Positions 1 through 21,083 of a stretch of DNA of 64,000 nt are shown here, one piece after another (positions within the stretch are counted from its first letter, which is position 1; the number at the start of each line of letters is the position of its first letter). The notes under the pieces were generated by a model. The model was given only the letters and a program-made list of their open reading frames with translations. It was not told the origin of the DNA and searched no databases. The stretch comes from a virus. The DNA is taken from the IMG/VR virus record IMGVR_UViG_3300035101_000063, one strand, 5' to 3'. Made by a program: the position numbers and the translations under genes.

Positions 1-18
1 ATAATCAATACCTCCTAA

Positions 19-90
19 AGCCGATGAGAGGACTTGAACCTCCAACAAACTGATTACAGGTCAGTTACTCTACCATTAAGTTACATCGGC
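19..90 (-). tRNA. tRNA, anticodon UGU (Thr) most likely
   Basis: Reverse complement folds as a cloverleaf: acceptor GCCGATG/CATCGGC, T-arm GGAGG-TTCAAGT-CCTCT, anticodon stem ACTGA/TCAGT with loop CCTGTAA. Position 33 is C rather than U, so isotype is uncertain. Confidence 0.6.
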
Positions 91-103
91 TTAAACTAAA
101 TTT

Positions 104-178
104 TTGCGGAGAAGGGATTCGAACCCTTGACTGACCTGGCGTATGAAACCAGCGAGCTAAACCACTGCTCTACTCCGC
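104..178 (-). tRNA. tRNA with CAU anticodon (Met or lysidine-Ile)
   Basis: Reverse complement: acceptor TGCGGAG/CTCCGCA, anticodon stem CTGGT/GCCAG with loop TTCATAC (U33, CAU), T-arm AAGGG-TTCGAAT-CCCTT. Confidence 0.7.
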
Positions 179-180
179 AT

Positions 181-462
181 CTATAATCTAACTCCTGTCT
201 TTCTCTCTTTAAACCCTCTATCCCATTCTCTTGCATATCCCAAAACAGACAATTCATCATTAGTAGCAAAAGTATTCGCCCTTAATCCTCTATCATAAGC
301 AAGTTGCAACACATATTCTCTATGACGTTTTTCACATATATCGTCATGTTTAAAACTATTTACACAAACCCATCTTCCATTAATCCATTCATGGTATGTT
401 GTCTCCAAACAAGAATCACACCATAACTCTTTAATTGTTGACTCTTCCATATATGGATTCAT
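181..462 (-). CDS. hypothetical small Cys/His-rich protein
   Basis: 93-aa ORF directly downstream of promoter motif at 520-549; several Cys/His. Confidence 0.5.
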   Translation of the reverse strand: MNPYMEESTIKELWCDSCLETTYHEWINGRWVCVNSFKHDDICEKRHREYVLQLAYDRGLRANTFATNDELSVLGYAREWDRGFKERKTGVRL

Positions 463-519
463 ATCTAACTCTCCTTTTTGTTTCTCCTTTCCTAAGCATC
501 TTGCTCAGTATCTATCCTC

Positions 520-549
520 TATTCTAACCCTACAAAACCGTTTGTCAAC
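520..549 (-). promoter_or_regulatory. sigma70-like promoter (minus strand): GTTGACAAAC -35, TAGAAT -10
   Basis: Plus-strand tttgtcaac at 541-549 reads GTTGACAAA on minus; TAGAAT lies 16 bp downstream on minus (plus 521-526). Confidence 0.55.
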
Positions 550-554
550 AAAAA

Positions 555-791
555 TCAGCCATAAACATTAAAATAAACAAAACCTGAACTTTTTCTCGCT
601 ACACTATAATTATTTGTAACACATGTCTCTTTCAAAAGAAATTCAACATTGTCTAATTCAGATCTTAACTTCGCCAAACGGCCATGAATGTATTCAATAA
701 CATCCTTAGAAACATCCTCTTTTAATATGTCTAAAAAAGAACCTATCTCTCCTAAAATACTGATTTTCTTCTCTTTTAACTCTTTAACCAT
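555..791 (-). CDS. hypothetical protein
   Basis: 78-aa ORF downstream of the promoter/inverted repeat at 846-879. Confidence 0.45.
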   Translation of the reverse strand: MVKELKEKKISILGEIGSFLDILKEDVSKDVIEYIHGRLAKLRSELDNVEFLLKETCVTNNYSVARKSSGFVYFNVYG

Positions 792-845
792 GTCAATCTC
801 CCACCTGTTTAGAACATATATATTCTATATATCCTCTCCTTGTTC

Positions 846-879
846 TAGTGTAATATAGATTGACAAATTTTTGTCAACT
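846..879 (-). promoter_or_regulatory. promoter with palindromic -35 region TTGACAAATTTTTGTCAA
   Basis: 18-bp inverted repeat at 860-877 holds a TTGACA hexamer on each strand; AT-rich -10 candidates on the minus side (tattac/tatatt). Confidence 0.45.
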
Positions 880-891
880 GTTTTTTTACTT

Positions 892-907
892 GCGAACTCG
901 AGTTCGC
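892..907. repeat. palindrome GCGAACTCGAGTTCGC (copy 1 of 10)
   Basis: Perfect 16-bp palindrome with a central XhoI-like CTCGAG; sits 13 bp upstream (minus sense) of the -35 at 872-877. Confidence 0.9.
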
Positions 908-917
908 TAATTTATTC

Positions 918-945
918 GTTTGTTTGTTTGTTTGTTTGTTTGTTT
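918..945. repeat. (GTTT)7 microsatellite abutting the distal CRISPR repeat
   Basis: Seven tandem gttt units; the last unit is the first four bases of the CRISPR repeat at 942. Confidence 0.85.
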
Positions 946-1413
946 CAATCCACGCCCCCTTTAAGGGGACGACACAGGCTCGCCAGACCACCGTCCCAAA
1001 TTCCCCAGGTCCGTTTCAATCCACGCCCCCTTTAAGGGGGCGACACAGCCCCGTGTACACATCCGGCGACGCGGAGTTGGATATGGTTTCAATCCACGCC
1101 CCCATGAAGGGGGCGAAACAGGCTCTTGCTTTTCCTCCTTTTTTCCCACCTCGTTTGCGTTTCAATCCACGCCCCCATGAAGGGGGCGAAACAGCCGGAT
1201 AATGGAATCCTTCTGTCCATATGCCCGAATCCGTTTCAATCCACGCCACCATGAAGGGGGCGAAACAGGGCTGTTGGAGGCCCGACAAGTAAAAAACAAA
1301 CTATGTTTCAATCCACGCCCCCATGAAGGGGGCGAAACAGTTCTCTTTTTTTGCCTGGTTTATCATAATTTTCTCCTGTTTCAATCCACGCCCCCATGAA
1401 GGGGGCGAAACAG
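942..1413 (-). CRISPR. CRISPR array 1: 7 repeats x 36 bp, 6 spacers (35-38 bp), type I-C-like repeat
   Basis: Repeats at 942, 1013, 1086, 1159, 1233, 1305, 1378 read GTTTCAATCCACGCCCCCATGAAGGGGGCGAAACAG. The reverse complement ...GCCCCCTTCATGGGGGCGTGGATTGAAAC matches the canonical I-C repeat end GTGGATTGAAA(C/T), so transcription is on the minus strand. The two leftmost repeats are variants (CCCCCTTTAAGGGG-CGACACAG). Confidence 0.93.
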
Positions 1414-1622
1414 AGACCATATAAAATAATATGTAATTACAATAACTTCCATCATTATTTTCGAGCGCCTATCATTTTTATATCTTATTATATATATCAC
1501 TGTTTTAATCAATACTCATTCATAAAACAACACATTACGTAACATTATGATATCATATAATAAAAACTAATTATATATTTTTCGAGCGGTCACAACTTTT
1601 TTACCACCATATAACCGCTCGA
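1414..1622 (-). promoter_or_regulatory. AT-rich leader-like region between the two arrays
   Basis: ~200 bp, very AT-rich, next to the most conserved repeat of array 1. Contains duplicated ttttcgagcg motifs (1461-1470, 1580-1589) and an inverted repeat cgagcggt...accgctcg (1583-1621). Confidence 0.45.
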
Positions 1623-1876
1623 TTTTCAATCCACACCCCCTTAAAGGGAACGACACAGAGCTCGGCGAATGCACGACCAAGACTGCTTAATGATGTTTCA
1701 ATCCACGCCCCCTTAAAGGGTGCGACACAGACGACTAAAAATATCAAGCATTCCTTTCCCATCATTCGTTTCAATCCACACCCCCTTAAAGAGGGCGACA
1801 CAGACTTTCTTATTTTTACTTCCCCCCTCTATTTCTTCACGTTTCAATCCACGCCCCCTTAAAGGGGGCGACATAA
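1623..1876 (-). CRISPR. CRISPR array 2: 4 repeats, 3 spacers, repeat variant CCCCCTTAAAGGGGG-CGACACAG
   Basis: Repeats at 1623 (degenerate), 1695, 1768, 1841 (3' end degenerate, ...gacat). Spacers 1659-1694, 1731-1767, 1804-1840. Same orientation as array 1; lies immediately 3' of the cas7 stop. Confidence 0.9.
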
Positions 1877-1913
1877 TATATTAAATTGTCAAAGAACACT
1901 ATCTCACTATCTA

Positions 1914-2798
1914 TTACAGCCCATCAATCTTTTCAGTCATCTCCACATTACTTGGCAAATCATCTCTATTTGCCACTATATCATAATCATTAAATGAACG
2001 TATTGGTTCATTAGGACTAACAATCCTATTTATTTTTATCAAATCAAACAATTTATGAGAAGGTGCATTACCTAACTTACTATTATGTTTAAAAACATAT
2101 AATTTCCTAGCAACCATCTTTCCTCTACCTGCAGAATGGTCATGCTCAAACATATTAATCATTGCTTCCCATAACAACTCAAGATCTTCTTCTGAAAAAC
2201 CAGTTTTCTCAGCAAAATAAGCAGATATATATCCTTCACATCTATACAACCCATAAGGTACAATGAATTTTTTACCCATCGTACGTTCTTTTTCTAGGTC
2301 CTCTTCCTTAGTAACAGCCATTCTAGTAATAGTTAACTCACCAGGAAGAACAGGATCAATACTTTTTGAAAAATTCATCTGAACTGGACCACGTACTTGT
2401 CCTGCATTAACAGCATTAGTCATTACAGCACCAAAAGTCCTAATATCAAAAAAATTATTACACATCCAGTTAGTTATCATAACTGATTCTTTTTCATCTT
2501 TTGGAAGCTTATTTGTTTCTGGCTTCAAATCATACTCTTTATAAGCCAATTCATGCTGTCTATTTAAAACAGCCTTCTCTTTAACATAAATCTTAAATCC
2601 TACTTCTTCTTCTTTTGTAACTTCGATATAATTTCTTATTTTTCTCTTTATACAAACATCAGAAACTAATCCATGAGACGTTTCCGAATCAAGCCTTGGC
2701 ATACCTCCAGCATCTGGATCTCCATTTGGATTTCCATTTTCAACGTCAAACAAAAAAACAAACTCATAACGATTTTTTATAACAGCCATTTTCATCAT
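1914..2798 (-). CDS. cas7c: Cas7c (Csd2) backbone subunit of type I-C Cascade
   Basis: 294 aa; N-terminal NRYEFVFLFDVENGNPNGDPDAGGMPRLD...GLVSDVCIKRKIRNY is the Csd2/DevR-family hallmark. Confidence 0.9.
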   Translation of the reverse strand: MMKMAVIKNRYEFVFLFDVENGNPNGDPDAGGMPRLDSETSHGLVSDVCIKRKIRNYIEVTKEEEVGFKIYVKEKAVLNRQHELAYKEYDLKPETNKLPKDEKESVMITNWMCNNFFDIRTFGAVMTNAVNAGQVRGPVQMNFSKSIDPVLPGELTITRMAVTKEEDLEKERTMGKKFIVPYGLYRCEGYISAYFAEKTGFSEEDLELLWEAMINMFEHDHSAGRGKMVARKLYVFKHNSKLGNAPSHKLFDLIKINRIVSPNEPIRSFNDYDIVANRDDLPSNVEMTEKIDGL

Positions 2799-4582
2799 CC
2801 TTTCATCTCACCAACAACTTCGTTGTCAATTCTATCTTCTTCGTTTTCATTATCAACTTTTTTTACAAAAAAATCATTCCATTGATGATAATATCCTATA
2901 ACAAATAAACCTTGATCTTCCAAACTCAAATAAGTTGGAAACTTATCAATATCATTATCATAAATAATAGAACCTAATTCTTTAGAATAATAAACCCAAA
3001 GTCCATATTTTTTATTCTTCAACTTCCTCTGATGATGAGTACTCAAGTGAAGTATTTTAGGAAATGCAACAGATGGCTTAACAGATGCAGATGTAAAATA
3101 ATTATCTTTTATTGTTGTTTTTATTTTTCTTTCTTCACTCTTTTCCTGTATTTTTTCCAATACAGCAAATAATCTTCCTAAATTATACGGCAAATCTTTT
3201 CTTTCTCTGTCTAAAGACACACTAACCTCCTTATTGAAATTTCTATTTAAAATTGCTTTTATTAAAGCACAATTATAACGATTTATCCTTTCATGTTCCT
3301 GCCTTTTATTATCTTTATTCTTCTTAGGAATAACCTTTAATCTATCTATCAATAAACTCATCAATGAAACAGGATATGGTATCCCATTTAAAATAGACAT
3401 CATAAATGGACCAACTATATTTGACGTTATATTTTTTTCGTCATACTGAAAAACTATTTCTGAAAAAAGTTTTTTAATACTTGGCATAAAATATTGTTCA
3501 TTTCTCCCTACAATATCTAAAAAATCAAAATGTTGAATTAATTTATTCGAGATACCTTCTATAGTATCTATATGCCAAAATTTAACAGACAAACGAGATA
3601 AATTTGGAACCAATCCTAAAATAAAAAATCTTTCATTACCATTAATATAATCTGGCATTCTCCTTTTTTTAACTGTATCCAAAAATTCTTCAGCTTCATC
3701 AACAAAATCAAAATCTTTTGATGGATTTAATAAAGTACCAAAAATATCATCCATCTTCGATTTTTTCTCAGACCAAAATACTATGGTCATATCGCCCAAT
3801 TCAATTTTATGTTTAGACTCTGAAATATAATTAAACGCAGTACTATATGCAAAAGCTTCATACTTTCCAATAGGAGCATTCAATCCTTGATCTTTGCTAT
3901 TATTTCCATAAGAACAAAATGAATCCATATTAAACGAAACAAAAGGAGCACTTTGCCCTTTCACTCTTATATTAGGATGAAGTCTAGCAATAGCAGTATT
4001 ATCTCCACTTATAATACAACGACCAAAACAATCACAATTACTTAAATATTTATCAGACCAATATCGTTGCAATTCATTTGATTCATGTAAATATTTCTCA
4101 TTACCCAACAATTTAACAACAACATTATTACATTTATCATCTAATACAATATCAAGATCTAAAAAAACATCAGGTTCCCATTTATCTAAGAAACGTATAA
4201 AAGCTTCTAAATCATCATTATTAATCATCTTAAAATGTTCACGATGATATTCTCTGAAAGCTTCAAATCTAGCCTTGCTTTTTTCAGTTATTTTCCAATC
4301 AGTATCATCACAAGCAATACCAAACATATATTCTAAATTCTCCCAACAAAAACCAGGACTTTTATTGATTCCATTAGTACGCTTAACCAAAGGAACCCTA
4401 ATAGATATTGGCCTTGGCTTTTTTTTGCTCTTGTCTTGTATATCTTCAAATCTAATAAAATTACCATAACTATCAATAACTAATGAATACTTTATTTTCT
4501 GGTTACCAAATCCTATTACAGGAATATCAGCACCAGATTCTTTTAAATATTCATAATAATTTACCAACTCTTCAAGAATCAT
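2795..4582 (-). CDS. cas8c: Cas8c (Csd1) large subunit of type I-C Cascade
   Basis: 595 aa; N-terminus MILEELVNYYEYL...RVPLVKRTNGINKSPGFCWENLEYMFGI is Cas8c-like; 4-bp overlaps with cas5 and cas7 indicate an operon. Confidence 0.85.
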   Translation of the reverse strand: MILEELVNYYEYLKESGADIPVIGFGNQKIKYSLVIDSYGNFIRFEDIQDKSKKKPRPISIRVPLVKRTNGINKSPGFCWENLEYMFGIACDDTDWKITEKSKARFEAFREYHREHFKMINNDDLEAFIRFLDKWEPDVFLDLDIVLDDKCNNVVVKLLGNEKYLHESNELQRYWSDKYLSNCDCFGRCIISGDNTAIARLHPNIRVKGQSAPFVSFNMDSFCSYGNNSKDQGLNAPIGKYEAFAYSTAFNYISESKHKIELGDMTIVFWSEKKSKMDDIFGTLLNPSKDFDFVDEAEEFLDTVKKRRMPDYINGNERFFILGLVPNLSRLSVKFWHIDTIEGISNKLIQHFDFLDIVGRNEQYFMPSIKKLFSEIVFQYDEKNITSNIVGPFMMSILNGIPYPVSLMSLLIDRLKVIPKKNKDNKRQEHERINRYNCALIKAILNRNFNKEVSVSLDRERKDLPYNLGRLFAVLEKIQEKSEERKIKTTIKDNYFTSASVKPSVAFPKILHLSTHHQRKLKNKKYGLWVYYSKELGSIIYDNDIDKFPTYLSLEDQGLFVIGYYHQWNDFFVKKVDNENEEDRIDNEVVGEMKG

Positions 4583-5250
4583 CTTTTAACCTCATCACTA
4601 TTCGGATGTGGAACACTTATGCATCCATTTTCTATTTTTGCACGAAAAAACATAGGCAAAATATTACATTTATCTTTTTTCTTCTTTATATCAAAACACA
4701 TATCATATAACATCCAACCAAGATCGCGTGTTTCATTTATAGCAACTGGCATCTTATTAGAAATGGGCTCAAAAAAAGCCGAGAATTCTCTACAACCCAA
4801 ATATGGCTGATTAAAACATTGACCATTTTCAATCCTTCGATTAAAAATACCAAAATGCTTTCCTTTGTTTTTTCCATCGTTTTCAACAGCCTCAAAATGA
4901 GCATCAATAACATAGCTTACATCTCGTAAAACCATAGAATTACGTTGTGTTCTATCAGATTCTATAAACAAAGATAATGGCCTTGAAATATTATTCATAG
5001 TAGATGTGATATTTTTTTTATAAATTGGAGAAGACACTTCATTTCTCCGAATATTACAAAAACGAATTGGATTCAAAACATAAATCTTATCAATTATCCA
5101 TCGAATAGATTTCTTCCAATAAATAGCCTCCAAAATTCCACGTGCAGCTGATGGTGTAATCACATCATAACTAACACGCTCAGCTTTCATTTCCGGCCTT
5201 GTAAAACACGCCAATTCACCCCAAACATGAACTTTTACTCCATAATCCAT
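4579..5250 (-). CDS. cas5c: Cas5c (Cas5d) subunit and pre-crRNA endoribonuclease of type I-C
   Basis: 223 aa; VHVWGELACFTRPEMKAERVSYDVITPSAARGILEAIYWKK matches the Cas5d N-terminal signature. Confidence 0.9.
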   Translation of the reverse strand: MDYGVKVHVWGELACFTRPEMKAERVSYDVITPSAARGILEAIYWKKSIRWIIDKIYVLNPIRFCNIRRNEVSSPIYKKNITSTMNNISRPLSLFIESDRTQRNSMVLRDVSYVIDAHFEAVENDGKNKGKHFGIFNRRIENGQCFNQPYLGCREFSAFFEPISNKMPVAINETRDLGWMLYDMCFDIKKKKDKCNILPMFFRAKIENGCISVPHPNSDEVKR

Positions 5251-5317
5251 AGTTTTCCCTTATATTTTTCAATATCTTATATCACATATTCTGCCAGCAC
5301 CATACTGACAATCTATC

Positions 5318-5350
5318 AAGACATTAATCAATTAATCATGTTTTGTCAAC
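5318..5350 (-). promoter_or_regulatory. promoter of the cas5-cas8-cas7 operon (GTTGACAAAA -35, TAATGT-like -10)
   Basis: tttgtcaac at 5342-5350 (minus GTTGACAAA); tandem 8-bp direct repeat attaatca x2 at 5323-5338 between -35 and -10 (possible operator); ~60-nt leader to the cas5 ATG at 5250. Confidence 0.55.
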
Positions 5351-5356
5351 ATTTTT

Positions 5357-5668
5357 CTACATTATCATTCCACACATATAAACTCTATCAATACGATGTT
5401 CACTAGCATCAAAAAAGGGTCCTTTCTTCCCTGAATATTTTACTTCATCTTTCAACCATTTACCGTTAGTCTCCTTATCTGGATCTTCACAATATATGTC
5501 TTCAGAAACAAAATCCAAAATCTCTGATACCGCTTCAGAATCCGAATCTGTATTTATATACTTACCATTTGCTTTATCTAGGATATCAAGATCTTCATCA
5601 GATACATTCTGAATAAAATATGCTTTCATATCTTCAGGAACCATCTCAAAAACTAAAAAAACATTCAT
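5357..5668 (-). CDS. hypothetical acidic protein upstream of the cas operon
   Basis: 103-aa ORF, RBS ggagataaaag, own promoter. Confidence 0.5.
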   Translation of the reverse strand: MNVFLVFEMVPEDMKAYFIQNVSDEDLDILDKANGKYINTDSDSEAVSEILDFVSEDIYCEDPDKETNGKWLKDEVKYSGKKGPFFDASEHRIDRVYMCGMIM

Positions 5669-5711
5669 CTTTTATCTCCTCTTTGTATACAACTAACCAA
5701 TTAGTTATGCC

Positions 5712-5743
5712 TTATATAACCACGTAACAACCAGTTTGTCAAC
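5712..5743 (-). promoter_or_regulatory. promoter GTTGACAAAC -35 / TATATA -10
   Basis: tttgtcaac at 5735-5743; tatata at 5713-5718. Confidence 0.5.
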
Positions 5744-5754
5744 TATTTTCAATT

Positions 5755-6273
5755 TCAGGCAATCGTATTATTGTTTTTTATATCTTCAAAATCATTTTCA
5801 TTCAAAACTGAAAATCTCTCAACCAAACCTGTCTCTTTATTTATATTAGCACATATACAACCAAATCCAGTTGTATCATCTTTACCAAATACACCATTCA
5901 AAATACCCAATATGCCTACTCTATATCCACCCTCTGGTCTCTTTCCAATTTGTATATTTGGTATATCTGCTAAATCCTTATTACAAATAACACGCATATT
6001 AATAAGTTGATTTATTGCATATGAATCTATAGCTAAAACCTTATTCAATATATCAACCACATCATTTGGTGTAACAATATCCTTTAACATCCATAATCCT
6101 TTTTTGGACGAACTCGAGTTCGTTTCACCTATATCATCCTGGTCACTAATTACCATCTTTTTGTAAAGCTCAAAATCTCGTCTCAAAACCTCAGATGGCT
6201 CTCTTGGATTCAATATGGCTTCTGCAAAAATAAGCGAATCTTCAGGAGACAACTCAAGTACTTCTATCTTCAT
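5755..6273 (-). CDS. hypothetical protein carrying palindrome copy 2 in-frame
   Basis: 172-aa ORF. The palindrome at 6108-6123 encodes ...ETNSSSS...; possibly two genes fused by read-through (internal Met MLKDIVTP just downstream). Confidence 0.45.
   Translation of the reverse strand: MKIEVLELSPEDSLIFAEAILNPREPSEVLRRDFELYKKMVISDQDDIGETNSSSSKKGLWMLKDIVTPNDVVDILNKVLAIDSYAINQLINMRVICNKDLADIPNIQIGKRPEGGYRVGILGILNGVFGKDDTTGFGCICANINKETGLVERFSVLNENDFEDIKNNNTIA
6108..6123. repeat. palindrome ACGAACTCGAGTTCGT (copy 2)
   Basis: Exact palindrome; intragenic. Confidence 0.9.
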
Positions 6274-6310
6274 ATTTTCAACACTTTATCAACTTTGTAT
6301 GGTCCAATAT

Positions 6311-6559
6311 CTATTCATCACTCAAATATCTATCCGTATCTTCAACAACCTTTAAAATAGTCCTATCTCTATATAATATAATCTTTCTAATTAACCTCCA
6401 AATCAATTCAATTCCAATTACAGCAATCGAAAATAAAAACAATAATCCATCTATTGATTCATCAAAATTGAATTCAAAAAGTTCTGCCCCACTTATTATA
6501 AACAACAACGCAAAAAATCTTAAATCAATTTTCCCTATATCTTTTTTTCGTATTGACAT
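6311..6559 (-). CDS. small hydrophobic (membrane) protein
   Basis: 82 aa with two hydrophobic stretches. Confidence 0.4.
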   Translation of the reverse strand: MSIRKKDIGKIDLRFFALLFIISGAELFEFNFDESIDGLLFLFSIAVIGIELIWRLIRKIILYRDRTILKVVEDTDRYLSDE

Positions 6560-6570
6560 TTTTCACCATA

Positions 6571-6897
6571 TTAATTGCATCTTTTAACCATACTAATTGC
6601 ATCTTTCATCTTCTTCACTTTTTTTGTAAGCCACCCAGTACCAGCACACCATTCGCAATCAACTGGGTCATCACATCCACATGCCACCACTTCGGCTTTA
6701 CATGGTCCAACAACAAACTCAGAACCTGGTTTACAAAACATATCTATTCCAGATTCGTTATAAAGTCCCCAATTTATTTGAACCAATTGCATCGCTCTTC
6801 CGAAACCAATAGTCTTCAAAGAAGACACTAATACTTTTTCAGAAGTTGTTTTTGGACCCAAAATATCATTAGCCTTATCATAATCATCAATCAACAT
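6571..6897 (-). CDS. hypothetical protein with a DnaJ-type CxxCxGxG zinc-finger motif
   Basis: 108 aa; CEWCAGTGW plus further Cys pairs. Confidence 0.45.
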   Translation of the reverse strand: MLIDDYDKANDILGPKTTSEKVLVSSLKTIGFGRAMQLVQINWGLYNESGIDMFCKPGSEFVVGPCKAEVVACGCDDPVDCEWCAGTGWLTKKVKKMKDAISMVKRCN

Positions 6898-6909
6898 ATC
6901 ACGTGCCTT

Positions 6910-7431
6910 TCATCTATATTTTTCATAACATTCATCACATAATTGGTTTATTGAACCGACCCTTATTCCTTCAATAAAATTTTTAATTCCATCAGGTTTA
7001 CCTATTAATCTTGCTCTATGTTTCTTTGTAATCATCCTTTCGACATGTTTCCCACAACATGGACATTTCCATTCCATCAAAATAACCTTATTAACATCAT
7101 CAAAAAAAGTAGATATCTCAACCAGAGATTCACTATTCCATCCAAACGCTAAATCAACAGGAAAAACTGGTATACTAACTCCATCATCCAACTTTTTTTT
7201 AAAATTAAAAAAAATATTCTTTTTGTTAGGCTTTTTAAAATGGACACTTGAAACATCCTGCTTCATTCTATCCTTTGCCTTTTTTTGTACTGAATCTAAA
7301 TATTCTTTTATTTTTTCCTCTATCTCAACTATCCTAAGTCTAGCATTCTCTCTTTCAAACAAAGACGATCCTTCATTCTCAACGATCTTTCTCAACTTCC
7401 TAATTAACTTATACTTTGCTACTACATCCAT
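6910..7431 (-). CDS. zinc-ribbon protein
   Basis: 173 aa; CPCCGKH ... CDECYEKY Cys pairs. Confidence 0.5.
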   Translation of the reverse strand: MDVVAKYKLIRKLRKIVENEGSSLFERENARLRIVEIEEKIKEYLDSVQKKAKDRMKQDVSSVHFKKPNKKNIFFNFKKKLDDGVSIPVFPVDLAFGWNSESLVEISTFFDDVNKVILMEWKCPCCGKHVERMITKKHRARLIGKPDGIKNFIEGIRVGSINQLCDECYEKYR

Positions 7432-7434
7432 ATA

Positions 7435-8433
7435 TTACTCACAAGCACATAATCTAGGGTCTACTGACCTACGATTTGACATGATTGCCCCACCATTACA
7501 AACAACCACAAGTATCTGATGAAAAACCATATCACTAGAATCATTGTGATATGTACACCCAGCTGCTCCAACATTCCATGTACGGTCTCCTATTCCACAA
7601 GAATCAATCGAAGCATACCAATATCCAGTTTCACCTTCTAACCCCAATCCTTGGACTATAGATATACAATTCTTATGATTATCCTTAATCACATTTTCAG
7701 TATCATCAGAATATTCAAGGCCAAAACTATGACATACACTTATACAATCTGACCTCTCCTCTGGAAGATCTGACCTATAATACCAACATATCCCAGAATC
7801 ATCAGGGAATTCATATCCATTATCCAAACATACTGATTCTTCTGTTTCAGTATCCATTAAACCATAAAAATCCGTATCAAAATCAGTATCCGTATCAGTA
7901 TCTGAGTCTGCATCCGTGTCCGCATCTGAGTCTGAATCTGAGTCTGCGTCCGTGTCCGTGTCCGCATCTGAGTCTGTATCAGCATCACTATCCACATACC
8001 CATTCATATTACAACATTTCAAACCTCTAGGACATGTACCACTAACAGGAATTCCACCTAAAGAAGAACAACTACTTAGACATTCACTTTCACATTCAAT
8101 ATTGATATCTGTATCAGTATCTATATACATATCAGAATCGCTATCTGTATTAGAATCGCTATCTGTATCAGTATCTGTATCAGAATCTGCATCAGTATCT
8201 GCATCTGTATCAGTATCGGTGTCCGCATCAGCGTCTGTATCGGCATCTGTATCACTATCAGAATCGGCATCTGCATCAACATACTCATTTCCAGTATCAA
8301 AAACATTACTGTTACTGTAAATATAAGCAGAATCTATCCAAATATATCCAGCATCGACGTCCAAAAATGCATCTGGTTCAGCAGCACACCCCAAAGATAT
8401 AAAATATACAAAAACCCATAAAATCTTTTCCAT
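7435..8433 (-). CDS. secreted Cys-rich protein with two long Asp-rich (D-A/S/T) dipeptide repeat tracts
   Basis: 332 aa; N-terminal signal-like MEKILWVFVYFISLGCAA; DADADSDSDTDADTD... tracts flank a Cys-rich core (CESECLSSCSSLGG...CPRGLKCC). Confidence 0.6.
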   Translation of the reverse strand: MEKILWVFVYFISLGCAAEPDAFLDVDAGYIWIDSAYIYSNSNVFDTGNEYVDADADSDSDTDADTDADADTDTDTDADTDADSDTDTDTDSDSNTDSDSDMYIDTDTDINIECESECLSSCSSLGGIPVSGTCPRGLKCCNMNGYVDSDADTDSDADTDTDADSDSDSDADTDADSDTDTDTDFDTDFYGLMDTETEESVCLDNGYEFPDDSGICWYYRSDLPEERSDCISVCHSFGLEYSDDTENVIKDNHKNCISIVQGLGLEGETGYWYASIDSCGIGDRTWNVGAAGCTYHNDSSDMVFHQILVVVCNGGAIMSNRRSVDPRLCACE

Positions 8434-8497
8434 AACAAACGCTCCTTTTCAAAAATACTATCTATACCTCGAATCCCTCGAGGCATCATCATATTAT

Positions 8498-8529
8498 ACA
8501 ATATATGAAAACAAAAAACGTTTGTCAAC
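8498..8529 (-). promoter_or_regulatory. promoter GTTGACAAAC -35 / TATATT-like -10
   Basis: tttgtcaac at 8521-8529; AT-rich -10 candidates at 8499-8506. Confidence 0.5.
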
Positions 8530-8546
8530 AAAATATAGAAAAAATC

Positions 8547-8933
8547 TTAAAAATTTCCATTTACATTAACAAAATTATCAGAATTTTTTATATTTCCGTT
8601 AACCTCTCCTCTCCTTTCGCTATCTGTCTGCCAAGCATCAGGAGAAAATGTTTTTATCTGTTTCGAAACTCCAAAAGGCAATATCAATCTGCCTATAATA
8701 GAAGGCTTATCATCGATACCATTATCTTGACAAAAACCATGAACAAGAATCTTTTTATTTGAAAAAACCTGATAAACTTCACTTTCTCCAAGCTTTAGGT
8801 CATATTTATCAGAGTAATAACTATTTAAAAGCTCTATCTTTTTATTCTCAAGCTCAACAAATTTTTCATATGCATCATAAGTATCCTTCCACACTCTTTC
8901 AATTTCTTCTTTCGATACCATATCATCCTCCAA
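8547..8933 (-). CDS. hypothetical protein
   Basis: 128-aa ORF. Confidence 0.5.
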   Translation of the reverse strand: MEDDMVSKEEIERVWKDTYDAYEKFVELENKKIELLNSYYSDKYDLKLGESEVYQVFSNKKILVHGFCQDNGIDDKPSIIGRLILPFGVSKQIKTFSPDAWQTDSERRGEVNGNIKNSDNFVNVNGNF

Positions 8934-8935
8934 AT

Positions 8936-9118
8936 TTACCCCGTTTCTACCCCCTTCAATTTATCCTCTTGCTCTTCCTCTTGCTCTTTAACATAATTAA
9001 TTCCATATACAATAGAATCATCTGTCTTATCAACAGCAATAATAGCAATATTATCAAACAATTTCTCTACCATACCTAACATATTTACAATTCTATTTCT
9101 ATCCTCTTTATCTAACAT
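8936..9118 (-). CDS. hypothetical small protein
   Basis: 60-aa ORF; start abuts the previous gene's stop. Confidence 0.35.
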   Translation of the reverse strand: MLDKEDRNRIVNMLGMVEKLFDNIAIIAVDKTDDSIVYGINYVKEQEEEQEDKLKGVETG

Positions 9119-9296
9119 TCAATACCCCCATAAAAAACCCCATAAGAAAAAAAGCATCCAAAACAGTCTTATCAGGATATCTCAACGCTGCTTCCCTGAC
9201 CACTTTAGGATCTAGTTTAATAGAAAAAGCAACTTTACATTTATCAATTTTCATTATCAAATCAACCTTTCTTTGGCATCTTGCCAACTATCTAGT

Positions 9297-9330
9297 CATA
9301 GATAATACACAAAAAAACTACATTGTCAAC
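9297..9330 (-). promoter_or_regulatory. promoter GTTGACAATG -35 / TATTAT -10
   Basis: attgtcaac at 9322-9330; tattat (minus) at 9302-9307, 16-bp spacer. Confidence 0.45.
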
Positions 9331-9610
9331 TATCTCGATTTTCATTACCCATAACAATTTCTTCTATAGCACACATATTTGCCATGAGTTCTCTATTAAT
9401 ACGAGATAATTTCTCTATCCTATTTTTGCATACAGGAATCACGTTACAAATTTTTTTAATATCAACTACAACTGAATCACTTTTTTCATTCGTAATATCT
9501 ACATTATTATCAGATAGAAAAATATTTAAAATACTTTCCAATGTTATATTCAATCGTTCCAATTCACCAATCAAATAATCATCACTTTTTTCTTCCATTT
9601 TAACCTCCAA
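9326..9610 (-). CDS. hypothetical protein
   Basis: 94-aa ORF; RBS ggagg. A second GTTGACAAAC motif (9614-9622) lies directly against its RBS. Confidence 0.45.
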   Translation of the reverse strand: MEVKMEEKSDDYLIGELERLNITLESILNIFLSDNNVDITNEKSDSVVVDIKKICNVIPVCKNRIEKLSRINRELMANMCAIEEIVMGNENRDS

Positions 9611-9671
9611 TAGTTTGTCAACACTATATACTTATTGACTCCCCATTATCTTAGCTCTTTTTTTGATGTAA

Positions 9672-9706
9672 AGAGAATATATATTATTGGAAATACAGTT
9701 GTCAAG
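9672..9706 (-). promoter_or_regulatory. promoter CTTGACAAC -35 / ATATAT -10
   Basis: ttgtcaag at 9699-9706; 17-bp spacer to atatat. Confidence 0.45.
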
Positions 9707-9832
9707 TACTTTTTTAAATAAAAAATATTCCAATAATTTCCTATCCATATCTTTCATACAAATAACTAAATAATAGATTCATATGTCGTATCAATCATTA
9801 TTTTAGAAATATCCATATTAATCTTCTTCTTT

Positions 9833-9848
9833 GCGAACTCGAGTTCGC
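9833..9848. repeat. palindrome GCGAACTCGAGTTCGC (copy 3)
   Basis: Exact palindrome 3 bp downstream of the stop of the small ORF at 9852-10022. Confidence 0.9.
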
Positions 9849-9851
9849 TGT

Positions 9852-10022
9852 CTATATATATCCAAGATACAATAACCACGATGGATATCCATGTGGACAT
9901 ATACCATCAGGTTCCACTACACATCCATCTGTTGCTTCACAAACCGAAGAAAAACCCCATCTCTCAATTTGCTCCAAATCAGGCTTAGGCATAGTTGGTT
10001 CAGGATATCTTTTCTTTTTCAT
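9852..10022 (-). CDS. small Cys-containing protein (56 aa), below the ORF-track length cutoff
   Basis: ATG at 10020-10022 preceded by RBS ggagagata; translates MKKKRYPEPTMPKPDLEQIERWGFSSVCEATDGCVVEPDGICPHGYPSWLLYLGYI. Confidence 0.3.
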   Translation of the reverse strand: MKKKRYPEPTMPKPDLEQIERWGFSSVCEATDGCVVEPDGICPHGYPSWLLYLGYI

Positions 10023-10053
10023 AATATCTCTCCTCTACTTAGTATATTTATTT

Positions 10054-10566
10054 TTATATCTTGGTTCCTTCGAGGTTGGCCCCTTCGAAGCCAGCCCATT
10101 TGAACTTGACCTCTTTAAGGTTGGCACTTTCAAGATTGGCCCCTTTAAGGTTGGCACTTTCAAGATTGGCACTTTCAAGATTGGCATCTTTGAGATTGAC
10201 CCCTTCAAGGTAAGCCCATTTGAGGTTGGCATCTTTGAGATTGGCCCCTTCAAGATTGGCATCTTTAAGGTAGGCCCATTCTAGATTGGCATCTTCGAGG
10301 TCAACCCCTTTTAGGTCAACCCCTTCGAGGCCAACCCCTTTTAGGTTGACCCCTTTAAGGTTGGCACTTTCAAGATTGGCACTTTCAAGATTGGCACTTT
10401 CAAGATTGGCACTTTCAAGATTGGCCCCTTTGAGATTGGCCCCTTTGAGGTTAGCTTCTTCGAGGTCAACCCCTTCGAGGTCAGCCCCTTTTAGGTTGGC
10501 TCCTTCGAAGTTGACCCCTTTGAGGATGGCTCCCCGCAAATTTCTTCCACTTAAATCAATTTTCAT
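10054..10566 (-). CDS. pentapeptide-repeat protein, paralog 1
   Basis: 170 aa; MKIDLSGRNLRGA... then continuous A(N/D)L(K/E)G pentapeptide repeats. Confidence 0.8.
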   Translation of the reverse strand: MKIDLSGRNLRGAILKGVNFEGANLKGADLEGVDLEEANLKGANLKGANLESANLESANLESANLESANLKGVNLKGVGLEGVDLKGVDLEDANLEWAYLKDANLEGANLKDANLKWAYLEGVNLKDANLESANLESANLKGANLESANLKEVKFKWAGFEGANLEGTKI

Positions 10567-11194
10567 TTTTTATCCCTTCGAGGTTGGCCCCTTCTAGATC
10601 GACCTCTTCTAGATCGACATCTTTAAGATTGGCTCCTTTAAGATTGGCTCCTTTGAGGTAGGCCCCTTTAATTTTGGCCCCTTCGAGGTTGGCTCCTTCT
10701 AGATTGGCTCCTTCTAGATTGACTCCTTCAAGGTTGGCACATTTAAGGATGGCCCCTTCTAGATTGGCCCTTTTTAGGTCTGCCATTTCTAAATTGGCCC
10801 TTTTGAGGTCTGCCATTTCAAGGTCTGCCCCTTCAAGGTTGGCCCCTGTAAAGTCTGACCCTTTAAAATTGGCATATCTTAGGTTGGCATCTTCGATGTT
10901 GGCCATTTTGAGGTTGACCCTTTCGAGATTGGCACCTCTTAGGTCTGCCCCTTTGAGGTCAGTACCTTCAAGGTTAGCACCTTCAAGATTGGCCCCTGTA
11001 AAGTCTGCCTTTTCAAGGTCTGCCCCTTCAAGATTGGCACATCTTAGGTATGTCCATTCGAGTTTGGCCCCTTTTAGGTTGGCTCCTTCGAGGTTAGCTT
11101 CTTCAAGGTTGGTCCTTTCTAGCTTAGCACCTCGCAAATCAATTCCTTCGAAGTTGGCTCCCCGCAAATTTCTTCCACTTAAATCAATTTTCAT
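10556..11194 (-). CDS. pentapeptide-repeat protein, paralog 2
   Basis: 212 aa; same N-terminus MKIDLSGRNLRGA; C-terminus ...EGIKNEN; 11-nt overlap with paralog 1. Confidence 0.8.
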   Translation of the reverse strand: MKIDLSGRNLRGANFEGIDLRGAKLERTNLEEANLEGANLKGAKLEWTYLRCANLEGADLEKADFTGANLEGANLEGTDLKGADLRGANLERVNLKMANIEDANLRYANFKGSDFTGANLEGADLEMADLKRANLEMADLKRANLEGAILKCANLEGVNLEGANLEGANLEGAKIKGAYLKGANLKGANLKDVDLEEVDLEGANLEGIKNEN

Positions 11195-11747
11195 TTTTTA
11201 TCCCTTCGAGGTTGGACCCTTTGAGATAGGCCCCTTCTAAATTTATCCCTCTCAAATCTGTCTTTTCCAGCTTGGCCCCTTCTAGGTAAGCCCCTTTAAA
11301 GTTGACTCCTTCCAAGTAAGCCCTTTTAAAATTGGCCCCTTTGAGGTTGGCTCCTTTGAAATTGGCCAAGTAGAGGTTGGCACATTCAAAATTGGCCCCT
11401 TCAAGGTTAGCATCTTTAAGGTCTGCCCCTTCAAAGTTGACCAATTTTAGGTTGGCTTCTTTGAGTTTGGCACCTTCTAGGTTGGCCCATTTAAGGATGG
11501 CCCCCTCAAGATTGGCCCCTTTTAGGTTGGCTTCTTTGAACTTAACCCCTTCGAGGTCAGCCCCTTCGAGGAAAGCCCCTTTTAGATTGGCCCCTTCAAG
11601 GTTGGCTTTTTTTAGATTGGCTCCTTTTAGGTAGGCATCTTTGAGGTTGGCCCCTTCAAGGTCAGCCCCTTTTAGGTAGGCACCTTCGAGGTCAGCCCCT
11701 TCCAAAATGGCTCCTCGCAAATTTCTTCCACTTAAATCAATTTTCAT
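11184..11747 (-). CDS. pentapeptide-repeat protein, paralog 3
   Basis: 187 aa; MKIDLSGRNLRGA ... EGIKNEN. Confidence 0.8.
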   Translation of the reverse strand: MKIDLSGRNLRGAILEGADLEGAYLKGADLEGANLKDAYLKGANLKKANLEGANLKGAFLEGADLEGVKFKEANLKGANLEGAILKWANLEGAKLKEANLKLVNFEGADLKDANLEGANFECANLYLANFKGANLKGANFKRAYLEGVNFKGAYLEGAKLEKTDLRGINLEGAYLKGSNLEGIKNEN

Positions 11748-12275
11748 TTATCTCTTAGCTCCTTCTAAGTTAGCTCCTTCTAAGTTGGCTCCTTTGAAAT
11801 TGGCTCCTTCTAGATTGGCCCCTTCGAGGTTAGCCCATTTAAAATTGGCTCCTTCGAGATTGGACCCTTCAATATTGGCCCATTTTAGGTCTGCCCTTTC
11901 GAGGATGGCCCCTTCGAGATTAGCCCCTTTGAGGATGGCCCCTTCGAGGATGGCCTCTTTGAGGTTAGCCCCTTTGAGATTTACCTCTTTGAGGTTAGCC
12001 CCTTCGAGGTTGGCCCTTTCGAGATTGGCCCCTTCGAGGTTAGTTCCTTCGAGGTTTGCCCTTTCAAGGTTGGCTCCTTTTAGGTTTGCCCTTTCAAGGT
12101 CTGCACCTTTGAGGTTAGCACATCTTAAACCTGTCCATTCAAGGTTGGACCCTTCGAGGTTAGTTCCTTCGAAGTTAGCTTCTTCAAGGTTGGTCCTTTC
12201 GAGGTCTGCCCCTCGCAAATCAATCCCTTTCAAAATAGCTCCTCGCAAATTTCTTTCACTTAAATCGATTTTCAT
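11748..12275 (-). CDS. pentapeptide-repeat protein, paralog 4
   Basis: 175 aa; MKIDLSERNLRGA...; its TAA stop overlaps the next ATG (taaATG). Confidence 0.8.
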   Translation of the reverse strand: MKIDLSERNLRGAILKGIDLRGADLERTNLEEANFEGTNLEGSNLEWTGLRCANLKGADLERANLKGANLERANLEGTNLEGANLERANLEGANLKEVNLKGANLKEAILEGAILKGANLEGAILERADLKWANIEGSNLEGANFKWANLEGANLEGANFKGANLEGANLEGAKR

Positions 12276-12708
12276 TTTTTATCCCTTCGAAGTTGGCCTC
12301 TTTGAGATAGGCCCCTTCCAAATTGGCCCCTTCCAAATTTACCCCTCGCAAGTTGACCTTGCTCAAATCAGTTCCTCTCATGTCAACCCTTTCCAAATTG
12401 GCACTTAGTAAGTCAGTCCCTTCCAAATTGGCCCCTCGCAAGTTAACCTTACTCAAGTTGGCCTCTCGTAAATCGGCCCCTTCCAAATCGGCCCCTCGCA
12501 AGTTTGCGTTACTTAAATTAGCCTTGCTCAAGTTGACCCCTCGCAAATTGGTCCATTCTAAGTTGGCCCCTTCCAGATTGACATTATTCAGATTAGCCTA
12601 TTCTAAGTTGGCCCATCGCAAGTTAATCCCTTCCAAATTGGCCTTGCTCAGATTAGCCTTTCGTAAATTGGCTTCTCGCAAAATTTTACCACTTAAATCG
12701 GTTTTCAT
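12256..12708 (-). pseudogene. pentapeptide-repeat paralog 5/6 interrupted by an in-frame TAG
   Basis: ATG at 12706-12708 gives MKTDLSGKILREANLRKANLSKANLEGINLRWANLE, then TAG (plus 12598-12600). The frame continues ANLNNVNLEGANLEWTNLRGVNLSKANLS... to the family C-terminus ...EGIKNENRFK at 12256. Confidence 0.6.
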
Positions 12709-20633: not shown

Positions 20634-20737
20634 TGCTTCCTCTCTTAATATTCAATGTTTCACGTGAAACACTTATTTCTTTTTCTTTCCGCCCTTGCCT
20701 TTTTTCTTACATCCCATTTTTAATATCATCCTTAATG

Positions 20738-20751
20738 CGAACTCGAGTTCG
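20738..20751. repeat. palindrome CGAACTCGAGTTCG (copy 4)
   Basis: Immediately 3' of the stop codon (20754-20756) of ORF 20754..21083. Confidence 0.9.
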
Positions 20752-20753
20752 TT

Positions 20754-21083
20754 CTATTTCTTTTTGTTTATTTTATTAATTTCGTCAACTACTACACTAA
20801 AACATTCATTCAAACTCAACAATTCATTTATTTTTATTAAAAAATCATGTGAAAAACCCTTCCACATAATCCTATCAATAGTAAGGTTGTCCTTTTCTAT
20901 AAGATCTTTAAGAGCATCAATATATTTATCAAACTTCTTCCTTATCATTGTTCCTGACCTAGATAATTCAGAAGCACTTCTTGGCATAAGTGTTTTATGT
21001 ATATTTTCAGACCTATTTTTCGCCCTTAATAAATCTGCATTATTACTCTCTATAATATTAAATATATCACTCATTTTTAACAT
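20754..21083 (-). CDS. hypothetical protein
   Basis: 109-aa ORF. Confidence 0.45.
   Translation of the reverse strand: MLKMSDIFNIIESNNADLLRAKNRSENIHKTLMPRSASELSRSGTMIRKKFDKYIDALKDLIEKDNLTIDRIMWKGFSHDFLIKINELLSLNECFSVVVDEINKINKKK

Follow-up and report, generated by a model that had tools for sequence, protein, structure and literature searches.

CRISPR systems without adaptation and nuclease genes have already been described in phages. Al-Shayeb et al. (2020, PMC7162821) reported such systems, among them a type I-C variant from huge phages in which a helicase replaces Cas3, and proposed that they use host Cas proteins, silence transcription or serve competition between phages, the same two roles that a preliminary description of the locus studied here had put forward. 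In the review of Koonin and Makarova (2024, PMC11656645), phage systems of this kind are concentrated in huge phages and rare below 200 kb; the review also covers plasmid type IV-A systems, which borrow host type I-E adaptation enzymes in trans and interfere without a nuclease, and the type I-F system of Vibrio phage ICP1 (Seed et al. 2013, as summarised in PMC11656645), which has Cas1 and Cas2-3, is fully autonomous and targets the PLE. How phage loci that lack nuclease and adaptation genes obtain spacers and harm their targets is still mostly conjecture. Here we report on a type I-C locus, cas5c-cas8c-cas7c followed by two CRISPR arrays, at positions 942-5350 of a 64,000-nt stretch of viral DNA (IMG/VR record IMGVR_UViG_3300035101_000063; the whole stretch is hereafter the window). 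The concept is already known; what is new is a canonical three-gene type I-C Cascade in a T4-like phage, rapid and polarised spacer gain at the population level without a linked adaptation module, a clean pair of genomes with and without the locus, non-standard repeat and spacer lengths, and dispersed, covarying repeat hairpins.

The effector is that of a canonical bacterial type I-C system, with the same order, cas5-cas8-cas7-array, and a repeat carrying the GC-rich hairpin and ...GTGGATTGAAAC tail of that type. PADLOC and Pfam confirm all three genes, with each family profile covered from end to end (Table 1); the extent of the whole locus, 942-5350, had been placed accurately in the preliminary description. 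The products are homologous over their full length to subunits of the complexes solved from D. vulgaris (PDB 7KHA, 8DEX) and N. lactamica (8G9S-8GAN). Cas5c aligns over residues 2-222, its full length, with D. vulgaris Cas5c (8DEX_A, 'pre-crRNA processing endonuclease', E=1e-66), and for Cas8c the PDB matches are 8DEJ_I (2e-90) and, over residues 1-575, N. lactamica Cas8 (3e-69). Residue 1 of D. vulgaris Cas11c (7KHA_K, 124 amino acids, aa) aligns to residue 455 of the phage Cas8c (E=4e-22), and the DNA at that codon reads AAGGAGG-TTAGT-GTG, a ribosome-binding site and GTG start exactly where the alignment begins. The small subunit would thus be encoded within cas8c, as in canonical type I-C, and the predicted Cascade would be complete, all four subunits (Cas5c, Cas8c, Cas7c and a predicted Cas11c) being encoded. 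That Cas11c would be translated from this start is deduced from McBride et al. (2020). Canonical type I-C systems have no Cas6, and no Cas6 family is found among the 24 Pfam families matched by the 79 open reading frames (ORFs) of the window; Cas5c is the predicted nuclease for precursor CRISPR RNA (pre-crRNA), as is characteristic of type I-C.

Purifying selection acts on these genes. All cas reading frames are intact, the cas genes of different strains share 98.4-99.3% identity, and the ratio of nonsynonymous to synonymous substitution rates between strains (dN/dS) is 0.16-0.18 for cas5c, 0.27 for cas8c and 0.04-0.06 for cas7c, with an overall range of 0.04-0.28, figures that rest on few substitutions (42 in total between the window and locus L006). 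The motif 'aaaaa-GTTGACAAA' that precedes cas5c also heads ~10 early-region phage genes. A consensus promoter had been proposed for the operon, and its perfect TTGACA and preceding A-tract, shared with its neighbours, bear this out in part; the -10 element is weak, scoring below 4 of 6, and a sigma-70 consensus scan does not list the site.

In the nearest bacterial relatives cas3 lies upstream and cas4-cas1-cas2 downstream, the arrangement that the preliminary description had taken as normal, whereas the phage has neither beside its effector genes. Among the Pfam families matched in the window there is no Cas3, HD, Cas1, Cas2, Cas4, Cas6 or Tn7 protein. Profiles for Cas3, Cas4, Cas1 and Cas2 were built from bacterial type I-C loci with Pfam-checked identities, and an additional full-length Cas3 profile (HD plus helicase) from ten sequences; in six-frame translations of the window and the phage loci (257 kb, overlapping) the best E-values were 0.18-0.6, E-values from these local profiles referring to small search spaces. 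As a positive control, the same kind of profile matches 13 IMG/VR type I-C loci at 1e-10 to 1e-208, their Cas8c being 26-34% identical. No cas gene appears among the precomputed Pfam labels on flanking loci. By way of sister contigs, coverage extends to ~91.3-172.9 kb plus 0-24.2 kb of a 172,915-bp contig, or ~106 of ~173 kb (61%). The absence of cas3 and cas1-2-4 is firm for the window, as had been claimed, and for this 61% of the genome; the wider profile search called for at the time has returned none of these genes as far as it reaches.

Two candidates for a hidden nuclease or mobility function were rejected. The sole helicase near the module is an SNF2-family protein with a HARP-like region (12722-14929; Pfam SNF2-rel_dom 1e-32, HARP 3e-4), which lies a dozen genes or 7.5 kb away, has no match to the Cas3 profile and carries no nuclease domain. 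A CRISPR-associated transposon of type I-C was considered as well, and no transposase, TniQ or AAA+ TnsC family is among the Pfam matches of the 79 window ORFs.

The locus resembles the systems of Al-Shayeb et al. in being phage-borne, in having no Cas1, Cas2, Cas4 or Cas3 in the 61% of the genome covered, in its compact arrays and in the roles proposed for it. It differs in that its ~173-kb T4-like genome falls below the 200-kb 'huge' class, in that no substitute helicase stands beside the module and Cas5c is close to the canonical enzyme, and in that population data here show presence/absence polymorphism and rapid spacer gain. In that class of systems, repeats similar to those of the host would allow host Cas proteins to be used; the bacterial repeats nearest to those of this phage differ from them in the loop and are without the CTGT extension described below. 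Among 13 type I-C loci that IMG/VR places on 'viral' contigs, most of those with enough flank are complete, and only L132 (IMGVR_UViG_3300048091_000277, 970-4800) is clearly Cascade-only: it too is a viral-called element with cas5c-cas8c-cas7c alone and no cas3 or cas4-1-2 in 13.8 kb. Its Cas8c, however, is 34% identical, its G+C content (GC) is 55%, and it carries a serine integrase (it looks temperate); it has no array but one solitary repeat ~430 nt upstream of cas5.

Both arrays of the phage directly follow the operon, as had been noted. The repeat tail GYGTGGATTGAAAC occurs in 11 copies against 0.9 expected by chance, with no copy elsewhere in the 64 kb. A GC-rich hairpin and an 11-nt ...AUUGAAAC handle, as type I-C repeats have, support the earlier assignment of a bona fide type I-C repeat, and the repeat folds into the expected hairpin, matches to Rfam CRISPR-DR9 being sub-threshold. 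The repeating unit, however, is effectively 36 nt, CTGT plus the 32-nt type I-C repeat: of the 11 repeats in the window, 10 have CTGT ahead of the 32-nt sequence, as do all later repeats in each strain. Compared with canonical bacterial systems, the phage thus has a 36-nt rather than a 32-nt repeat unit and spacers of 35-39 rather than 32-35 nt, in two short, phage-borne arrays beside genes of 30% GC. The last repeat of array 1 is degenerate (...GAAAA).

Spacer gain in array 2 is ongoing, fast relative to the ~1% sequence divergence among strains, and takes place without a nearby adaptation gene. Nine array variants contain 70 distinct spacers of 35-39 nt (mode 37), while the cas genes beside them are 98.4-100% identical. 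Array 1 draws on a small core set (s1, s2, s3, s9) that has been differentially lost, s1-s3 being common to most strains. Array 2, by contrast, is almost wholly different between strains, and the novelty adjoins the leader: in the window and in loci L001 and L003 the trailer-end spacers are common and the leader-end spacers private (Table 1), the classic mark of polarised acquisition. Beside the leader there are runs of identical repeat variants (eight of TTAAAG type and then TTCATG type in L113; three consecutive CCTCC variants in L147), as would arise if the first repeat were duplicated serially. In two strains, spacers overlap within one target region and are one single-nucleotide polymorphism apart. 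With array 2 actively gaining spacers, the adaptation enzymes must have some source.

Several spacers from different strains overlap or share stretches of 13-25 nt (L113_17/L145_11, L147_4/L147_9 and L006_6/L145_10). It seems that a few target regions or motifs have been sampled again and again, perhaps through primed acquisition or because the range of targets is narrow.

This turnover invites comparison with two better understood systems. In type IV-A plasmids, as here, an effector and an array sit on a mobile element without nuclease or adaptation genes, spacers turn over, and the spacers are aimed at competing elements, as we propose for the phage locus; the analogy is a functional one, the effectors there being unrelated (Csf proteins plus DinG), the carrier a plasmid, and the borrowing of host enzymes demonstrated there and inferred here. 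ICP1 shares with this phage a phage-encoded type I system in a strain-variable accessory locus that acquires spacers. Only the effector is found in the present phage, however, and the target of ICP1, the PLE, is known.

The replicon is a lytic-type T4-like phage of ~173 kb. Pfam matches in the window include a T4-type sheath, gp19 tube, baseplate and gp15, beside two tRNAs; sister contigs add gp13, the gp23 major capsid protein, an S77 prohead protease and a T4-type portal, with capsid, portal and protease just beyond the right end of the window. Proteins identical to those of the window are found on contigs of 158,275 and 172,915 bp and close variants on contigs of 165,799 and 170,337 bp, and many samples from JGI, ENA and Logan contain contigs in this size range, 158-173 kb. 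The window maps to ~107.7-171.7 kb of the 172,915-bp contig, position 1 of which continues the region downstream of the arrays, with ~1.4 kb unaccounted for in the coordinate mapping. Because the two ends of this contig approximately adjoin, it looks like a complete, circularly permuted genome. No match to window positions 1-12000 was found in INPHARED by megablast.

Within this genome the module is a discrete, strain-variable accessory cassette. The sister phage L122 (JGI Ga0373610_000013) has the same backbone without it: the stop codon of a 103-aa ORF is followed by ~105 nt and then by the promoter at window position 888, and downstream of the cassette the two phages are 99.9% identical over 14.3 kb. 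We considered whether the 105-nt filler is a repeat remnant and found no homology to the cassette. The acidic 103-aa ORF upstream of cas5c (5357-5668), which the preliminary description had seen as occupying the place of cas3, is also present in the cas-less L122 and is consequently a backbone gene outside the module.

The region 5357-9700 is mosaic between strains (compared with L006:1-9300, L122:1-2960, L144 and L147), with differing Bro-N, ANT and P22 anti-repressor-like genes, so that the cassette sits in a hypervariable accessory island.

The cas genes appear to have been in the lineage for a long time. They have a GC of 0.30 against ~0.35 for the window, which agrees with the earlier impression of AT-rich, long-resident genes, and the nearest Cas8c outside the phage lineage, among those known, is 48% identical. 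Of three close bacterial relatives inspected, two have the canonical cas3-cas5-cas8-cas7-cas4-cas1-cas2-array order and the third lies on a 6.2-kb contig that ends after cas4; their GC is 47-50% against 30% in the phage genes. One of the complete loci, with ~105 spacers and a Cas8c 44% identical (L128; ENA ERZ23486236, ATLA15-1_SAMN03981657 scaffold_1790), is from a study that also yielded a sister phage scaffold. Taken together, the divergence of Cas8c, the shift in GC and the canonical organisation of the relatives mark the module as an old capture, since ameliorated, of the effector genes alone.

Table 1. Coordinates of the cassette and related features. Positions are those of the window unless a locus is named; array 2 spacers are listed from the leader end where an order is given.
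Feature	Position	Strand	Remarks
Whole accessory cassette	~889-5356	minus	~4.47 kb; replaced by ~105 nt of unrelated AT-rich DNA in sister phage L122
-35 hexamer TTGACA of cassette promoter	5344-5349	minus	Perfect, A-tract before; best -10 candidates TAATGT / TTAATG, 17-18 nt downstream, weak
cas5c	4579-5250	minus	223 aa; pre-crRNA endoribonuclease and 5'-handle-binding subunit (predicted); PADLOC Cas5c E=5e-70, Pfam Cas_Cas5d E=8e-42
cas8c (Csd1), large subunit	2795-4582	minus	595 aa; Pfam Cas_Csd1 PF09709 E=3e-142, profile positions 1-559 of 559; PADLOC Cas8c 1e-122
Internal cas11c (predicted)	2795-3232	minus	Shine-Dalgarno AAGGAGG (3232-3226), 5 nt, GTG at cas8c codon 455 (3220-3218), in frame to cas8c stop, ~141 aa
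cas7c (Csd2), backbone subunit	1914-2798	minus	294 aa; PADLOC Cas7c 2e-114, Pfam Cas_Cas7 PF05107 1e-109
CRISPR array 1	1876-1623	minus	4 repeats, 3 spacers (37, 37, 36 nt); begins 37 nt past cas7 stop
AT-rich leader of array 2	1622-1414	minus	209 nt between arrays; equal spacing in 9 of 9 strain variants
CRISPR array 2	1413-942	minus	7 repeats, 6 spacers (35-38 nt); hypervariable, growing array
(AAAC)7 microsatellite	918-945	minus	Extends AAAC end of array 2's last repeat; Tandem Repeats Finder
Palindrome GCGAACTCGAGTTCGC	892-907		Recurrent terminator-like phage hairpin closing the cassette; next phage promoter adjoins
Array 2 spacers, L003			s8 s9
Array 2 spacers, window			s4 s5 s6 s7 s8 s9
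Array 2 spacers, L001			s10 s11 s5 s6 s7 s8 s9
Array 2 spacers, L006, L113/L144, L145, L147			7-15 other spacers each, sets almost entirely different
Solitary repeat units	L123:5043-5078, 7203-7238, 11349-11383, 14509-14544; L127:12768-12803		
Solitary repeat units	L120:3329-3364 (= L119:3389, L125:11623); L113:8198; L006:13872 and 21491		

The reading we favour, and to which we would give an even chance, is that of an optional cassette for competition or counter-defence which makes its own CRISPR RNAs (crRNAs) and a complete Cascade, has array 2 fed by host adaptation enzymes, and acts on rival related phages with the help of host Cas3 if docking occurs and otherwise by binding. The cassette promoter would drive cas5c, cas8c (with cas11c from its internal start) and cas7c and read on into the arrays. 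To judge from close homology to the solved complexes, Cas5c would cleave the array transcript at the base of each repeat hairpin, and a Cascade of Cas5c, Cas8c, Cas7c and Cas11c would assemble, load guides of ~37 nt and bind matching double-stranded DNA. We conjecture that new spacers enter the leader end of array 2 during infection through Cas1-Cas2(-Cas4) of a type I-C host, and that the bound target, most likely a co-infecting related phage, would be degraded if the host Cas3 docks or else blocked by binding alone.

That the host has a type I-C system is probable by analogy. Solitary type I-C repeats occur in this phage, as described below, and viral solitary repeats match the host CRISPR subtype in 83% of surveyed cases (PMC10651486), which would make a host Cas3 and Cas1-2-4 available. 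The target is probably a relative of this phage. A spacer of L001 contains GAACTCGAGTTCGC, the 14-nt core of the terminator palindrome of the phage lineage, yet has no full match in the phage, so that its source points to a phage relative; several old, conserved spacers have 53-63% GC against ~34% in the phage, indicating sources that differ from the phage itself. A 26/38 match of the L001 spacer at window positions 20736-20761 was rejected as a protospacer, only the terminator palindrome being shared.

Several observations weigh against this reading. A search for protospacers, a kind of check that the preliminary description had proposed, has found none in what it covered. The first 40 spacers have no match in the window or in sister phage loci and, concatenated, gave one insignificant match in INPHARED; four conserved spacers, searched as exact patterns, have no match in IMG/VR; and the phage spacers match none of the bacterial loci collected. 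The sole 5' flank that could be reconstructed, from two overlapping spacers, is TTT, against the canonical TTC. No host could be assigned through the repeats, and in the reverse direction none of the 1343 spacers of 101 bacterial loci and none of the 145 spacers of L128 and L130 matches the phage. No bacterial Cas8c exceeds 48% identity to that of the phage, which makes it uncertain whether a foreign Cas3 could dock.

What speaks most strongly against the straightforward loan of a standard type I-C integrase is the dimensions of repeat and spacer, for such an enzyme would be expected to yield 32-nt repeats and 33-35-nt spacers. When one genome per species was scanned for the core repeat, 101 bacterial loci from many phyla were found, none of them specific; their loops are TTCAC or TTCGC, the bases at the CTGT position vary, and the period is 64-68 nt against 72-74 in the phage. 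The 36-nt unit and 35-39-nt spacers of the phage (mode as above) are thus unlike all 101 bacterial loci with the nearest repeat. In JGI metagenomes, arrays with the 36-nt phage-type repeat lie only on phage contigs, the other matches being a few single chance matches inside ordinary bacterial arrays with 32-nt repeats, and IMG/VR searches found no close Cas8c and no phage-type repeat. The leader of array 2 also resembles the bacterial type I-C leader motif (GGTTCGC ~50 nt upstream) only weakly.

The alternatives overlap in part with the favoured reading, because each differs from it in single steps. An unlikely yet serious one is that Cascade never meets a Cas3 and works purely as a crRNA-guided roadblock, a natural CRISPR interference (CRISPRi) directed at host or rival-phage promoters or genes, with spacers still supplied by host adaptation enzymes. 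The lack of Cas3 in 61% of the genome is what such a binder would look like; the high divergence of the phage Cas8c from all bacterial Cas8c argues against a conserved docking surface for Cas3; some spacers look regulatory, one in L006 containing an A-tract with TTGACA and the newest in the window AGGAG-N7-ATG; and there are precedents (PMC11656645, PMC7162821). However, no more than ~5-6 of the first 40 spacers appear to stem from intergenic DNA, roughly the share expected if a phage genome were sampled at random. A replicating lytic competitor would be only weakly held back by binding alone, and no target has been found for the spacers searched.

A role centred on RNA, which we think doubtful, is raised by repeat units outside any array. 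At least six solitary type I-C-like units occur on the coding strand of sister loci (Table 1). Three of them lie 6-35 nt past a stop codon: that of an ARPP gene, that of a 247-aa ORF and that of the gp23 major capsid gene, in this last case at 6 nt. Two others overlap a gene at its 3' end, in one instance an RyR-domain gene, and another lies 192 nt past a stop. All have an invariant GTGGATTGAAAC tail, and their stems covary: 95.8% of cells are paired against 36-72% in slid controls, five of six pairs have changed on both sides, and 0 of 500 shuffles was as good. The hairpin is formed by five of six folded sequences (four solitary units and two array repeats). In sequence and fold the units mimic CRISPR repeats, as RNA anti-CRISPRs do; they may instead, or as well, serve as sites for Cas5c in phage mRNAs.

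Published solitary repeats and RNA anti-CRISPRs share the hairpin with its handle, an orientation co-directional with genes and, in several cases, a position directly after an ORF; RacrIC1, for example, lies 11 nt past acrIC5 (Camara-Wilpert et al. 2023, PMC10651486). The present units differ in number, with at least six per genome, and in stems that have diverged with compensation. Published solitary repeats are moreover defined as not cas-associated, whereas here they coexist with a phage Cas5c, Cas7c and Cas8c.

On the RNA-centred account, Cas5c, with or without the rest of Cascade, would recognise the scattered hairpins as sites for processing or stabilising mRNA 3' ends, or the hairpins would act as RNA anti-CRISPR decoys that, joined by the phage subunits, take over the host type I-C system, the arrays being secondary. 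The coding-strand position of the units, mostly just past stops and once directly after the major capsid gene, their invariant tail and compensatory stem changes, and the existence of an experimentally validated type I-C RNA anti-CRISPR (PMC10651486) all speak for it. Against it, no solitary unit lies in the window outside the arrays, one unit (SRUb) folds poorly, and the fast turnover of spacers shows that the arrays themselves are under selection; the units are also present in the cas-less strain, although 99.9% identity makes this uninformative.

A speculative combination, which we hold to be about as doubtful, would give the phage two arms. On the DNA side, a nuclease-free Cascade would have its guides renewed quickly by an integrase whose ruler is non-standard (36-nt repeat, ~37-nt spacers) and which would be borrowed or else come from the remaining part of the genome. 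On the RNA side, Cas5c would recognise a regulon of diverged hairpins after phage genes, including that of the major capsid protein, thereby shaping mRNA 3' ends or jamming the host type I-C complex while host Cas3 and Cas1-2-4 stay free for use by the phage.

More doubtful again is that the system is complete after all, with cas3 and/or cas4-cas1-cas2 elsewhere on the replicon. Beyond the 61% of the genome that the search reached, the other ~67 kb (39%) could contain a cas3 or adaptation genes of the phage. A dedicated adaptation module there stays under consideration because the repeat and spacer dimensions do not match those of bacterial loci: array 2 clearly gains spacers, and a 36-nt repeat with ~37-nt spacers looks as if made by a dedicated integrase with its own ruler. 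These ~67 kb separate the early/methylase region from the terminase-portal block, and in T4-like phages this stretch usually holds replication genes. Their position thus speaks against such a module, as do the nature of the cassette, a discrete 4.47-kb insertion or deletion with its own promoter and terminator, and the adjacency of cas3 and cas4-1-2 to the effector genes in all complete type I-C loci examined. Published phage systems, too, are usually without these genes (PMC7162821).

Very unlikely is a decaying, functionless remnant of a captured bacterial type I-C locus: decay would produce the loss of cas3 and adaptation genes, and a sister phage has no cassette, but every frame is intact and its product full length by comparison with the solved structures, the start of Cas11c inside cas8c has been kept, dN/dS is well below 1, 70 distinct spacers show leader polarity and the composition is fully ameliorated. 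Least likely of all is that the contig is a bacterial chromosome or a prophage-bearing island and not a virulent phage, for although some 'viral' type I-C loci in IMG/VR look like complete bacterial loci, the module here is flanked by T4-type capsid, portal, prohead protease, gp13, sheath, tube and baseplate genes, in keeping with the myovirus-like genome first described, contigs of 158-173 kb recur in many samples, the ends of the 172,915-bp contig approximately adjoin, and no integrase or housekeeping genes appear in 106 kb of phage genome.

This phage lineage offers a natural experiment: it is abundant and found in many samples, with contigs of up to 173 kb, and it offers 99.9%-identical sisters with and without the cassette as well as nine array variants whose 70 spacers show a clear order of acquisition. 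It bears on whether host enzymes can feed the array of a lytic phage during infection, and on whether a foreign Cascade can use a host Cas3. A compact three-gene Cascade with a built-in Cas11 and longer guides is of possible interest as a binding-only tool, and the dispersed covarying hairpins suggest that phages put CRISPR repeats to a further and possibly new use, in their RNA biology or in counter-defence.

Some features of the surrounding genome may be recorded here. Promoter-like sites with an A-tract and GTTGACAAA occur on the minus strand at 548, 877, 5349, 5742, 8528, 9329, 9621, 14998 and 16713; they are confined to the left 17 kb of the window, an accessory region of small ORFs, with none in the structural-gene part. 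The palindrome (G)CGAACTCGAGTTCG(C) has 10 copies in the window (894, 6110, 9835, 20739, 23824, 39286, 45409, 48665, 55288 and 57401), several of them intergenic, and looks like the standard terminator hairpin of the phage. A 332-aa ORF at 7435-8433 has a hydrophobic N-terminus and long Asp/Thr/Ser/Ala dipeptide-like repeats (tandem repeats of 12-42 nt) and matches no family. Pentapeptide-repeat genes at 10054-12408 (Pfam Pentapeptide 1e-78, three ORFs) contain ~143 copies of a 15-nt period, and at least one sister-phage assembly breaks in this block (the contig end of L001). Fragments of the phage are also found inside a metagenome-assembled genome labelled Candidatus Lokiarchaeota archaeon (cluster members P0174, P0200, P0217 and P0231; NCBI MEJ2295514.1 and others), a placement that is probably a binning artefact and that hints at a sediment habitat.

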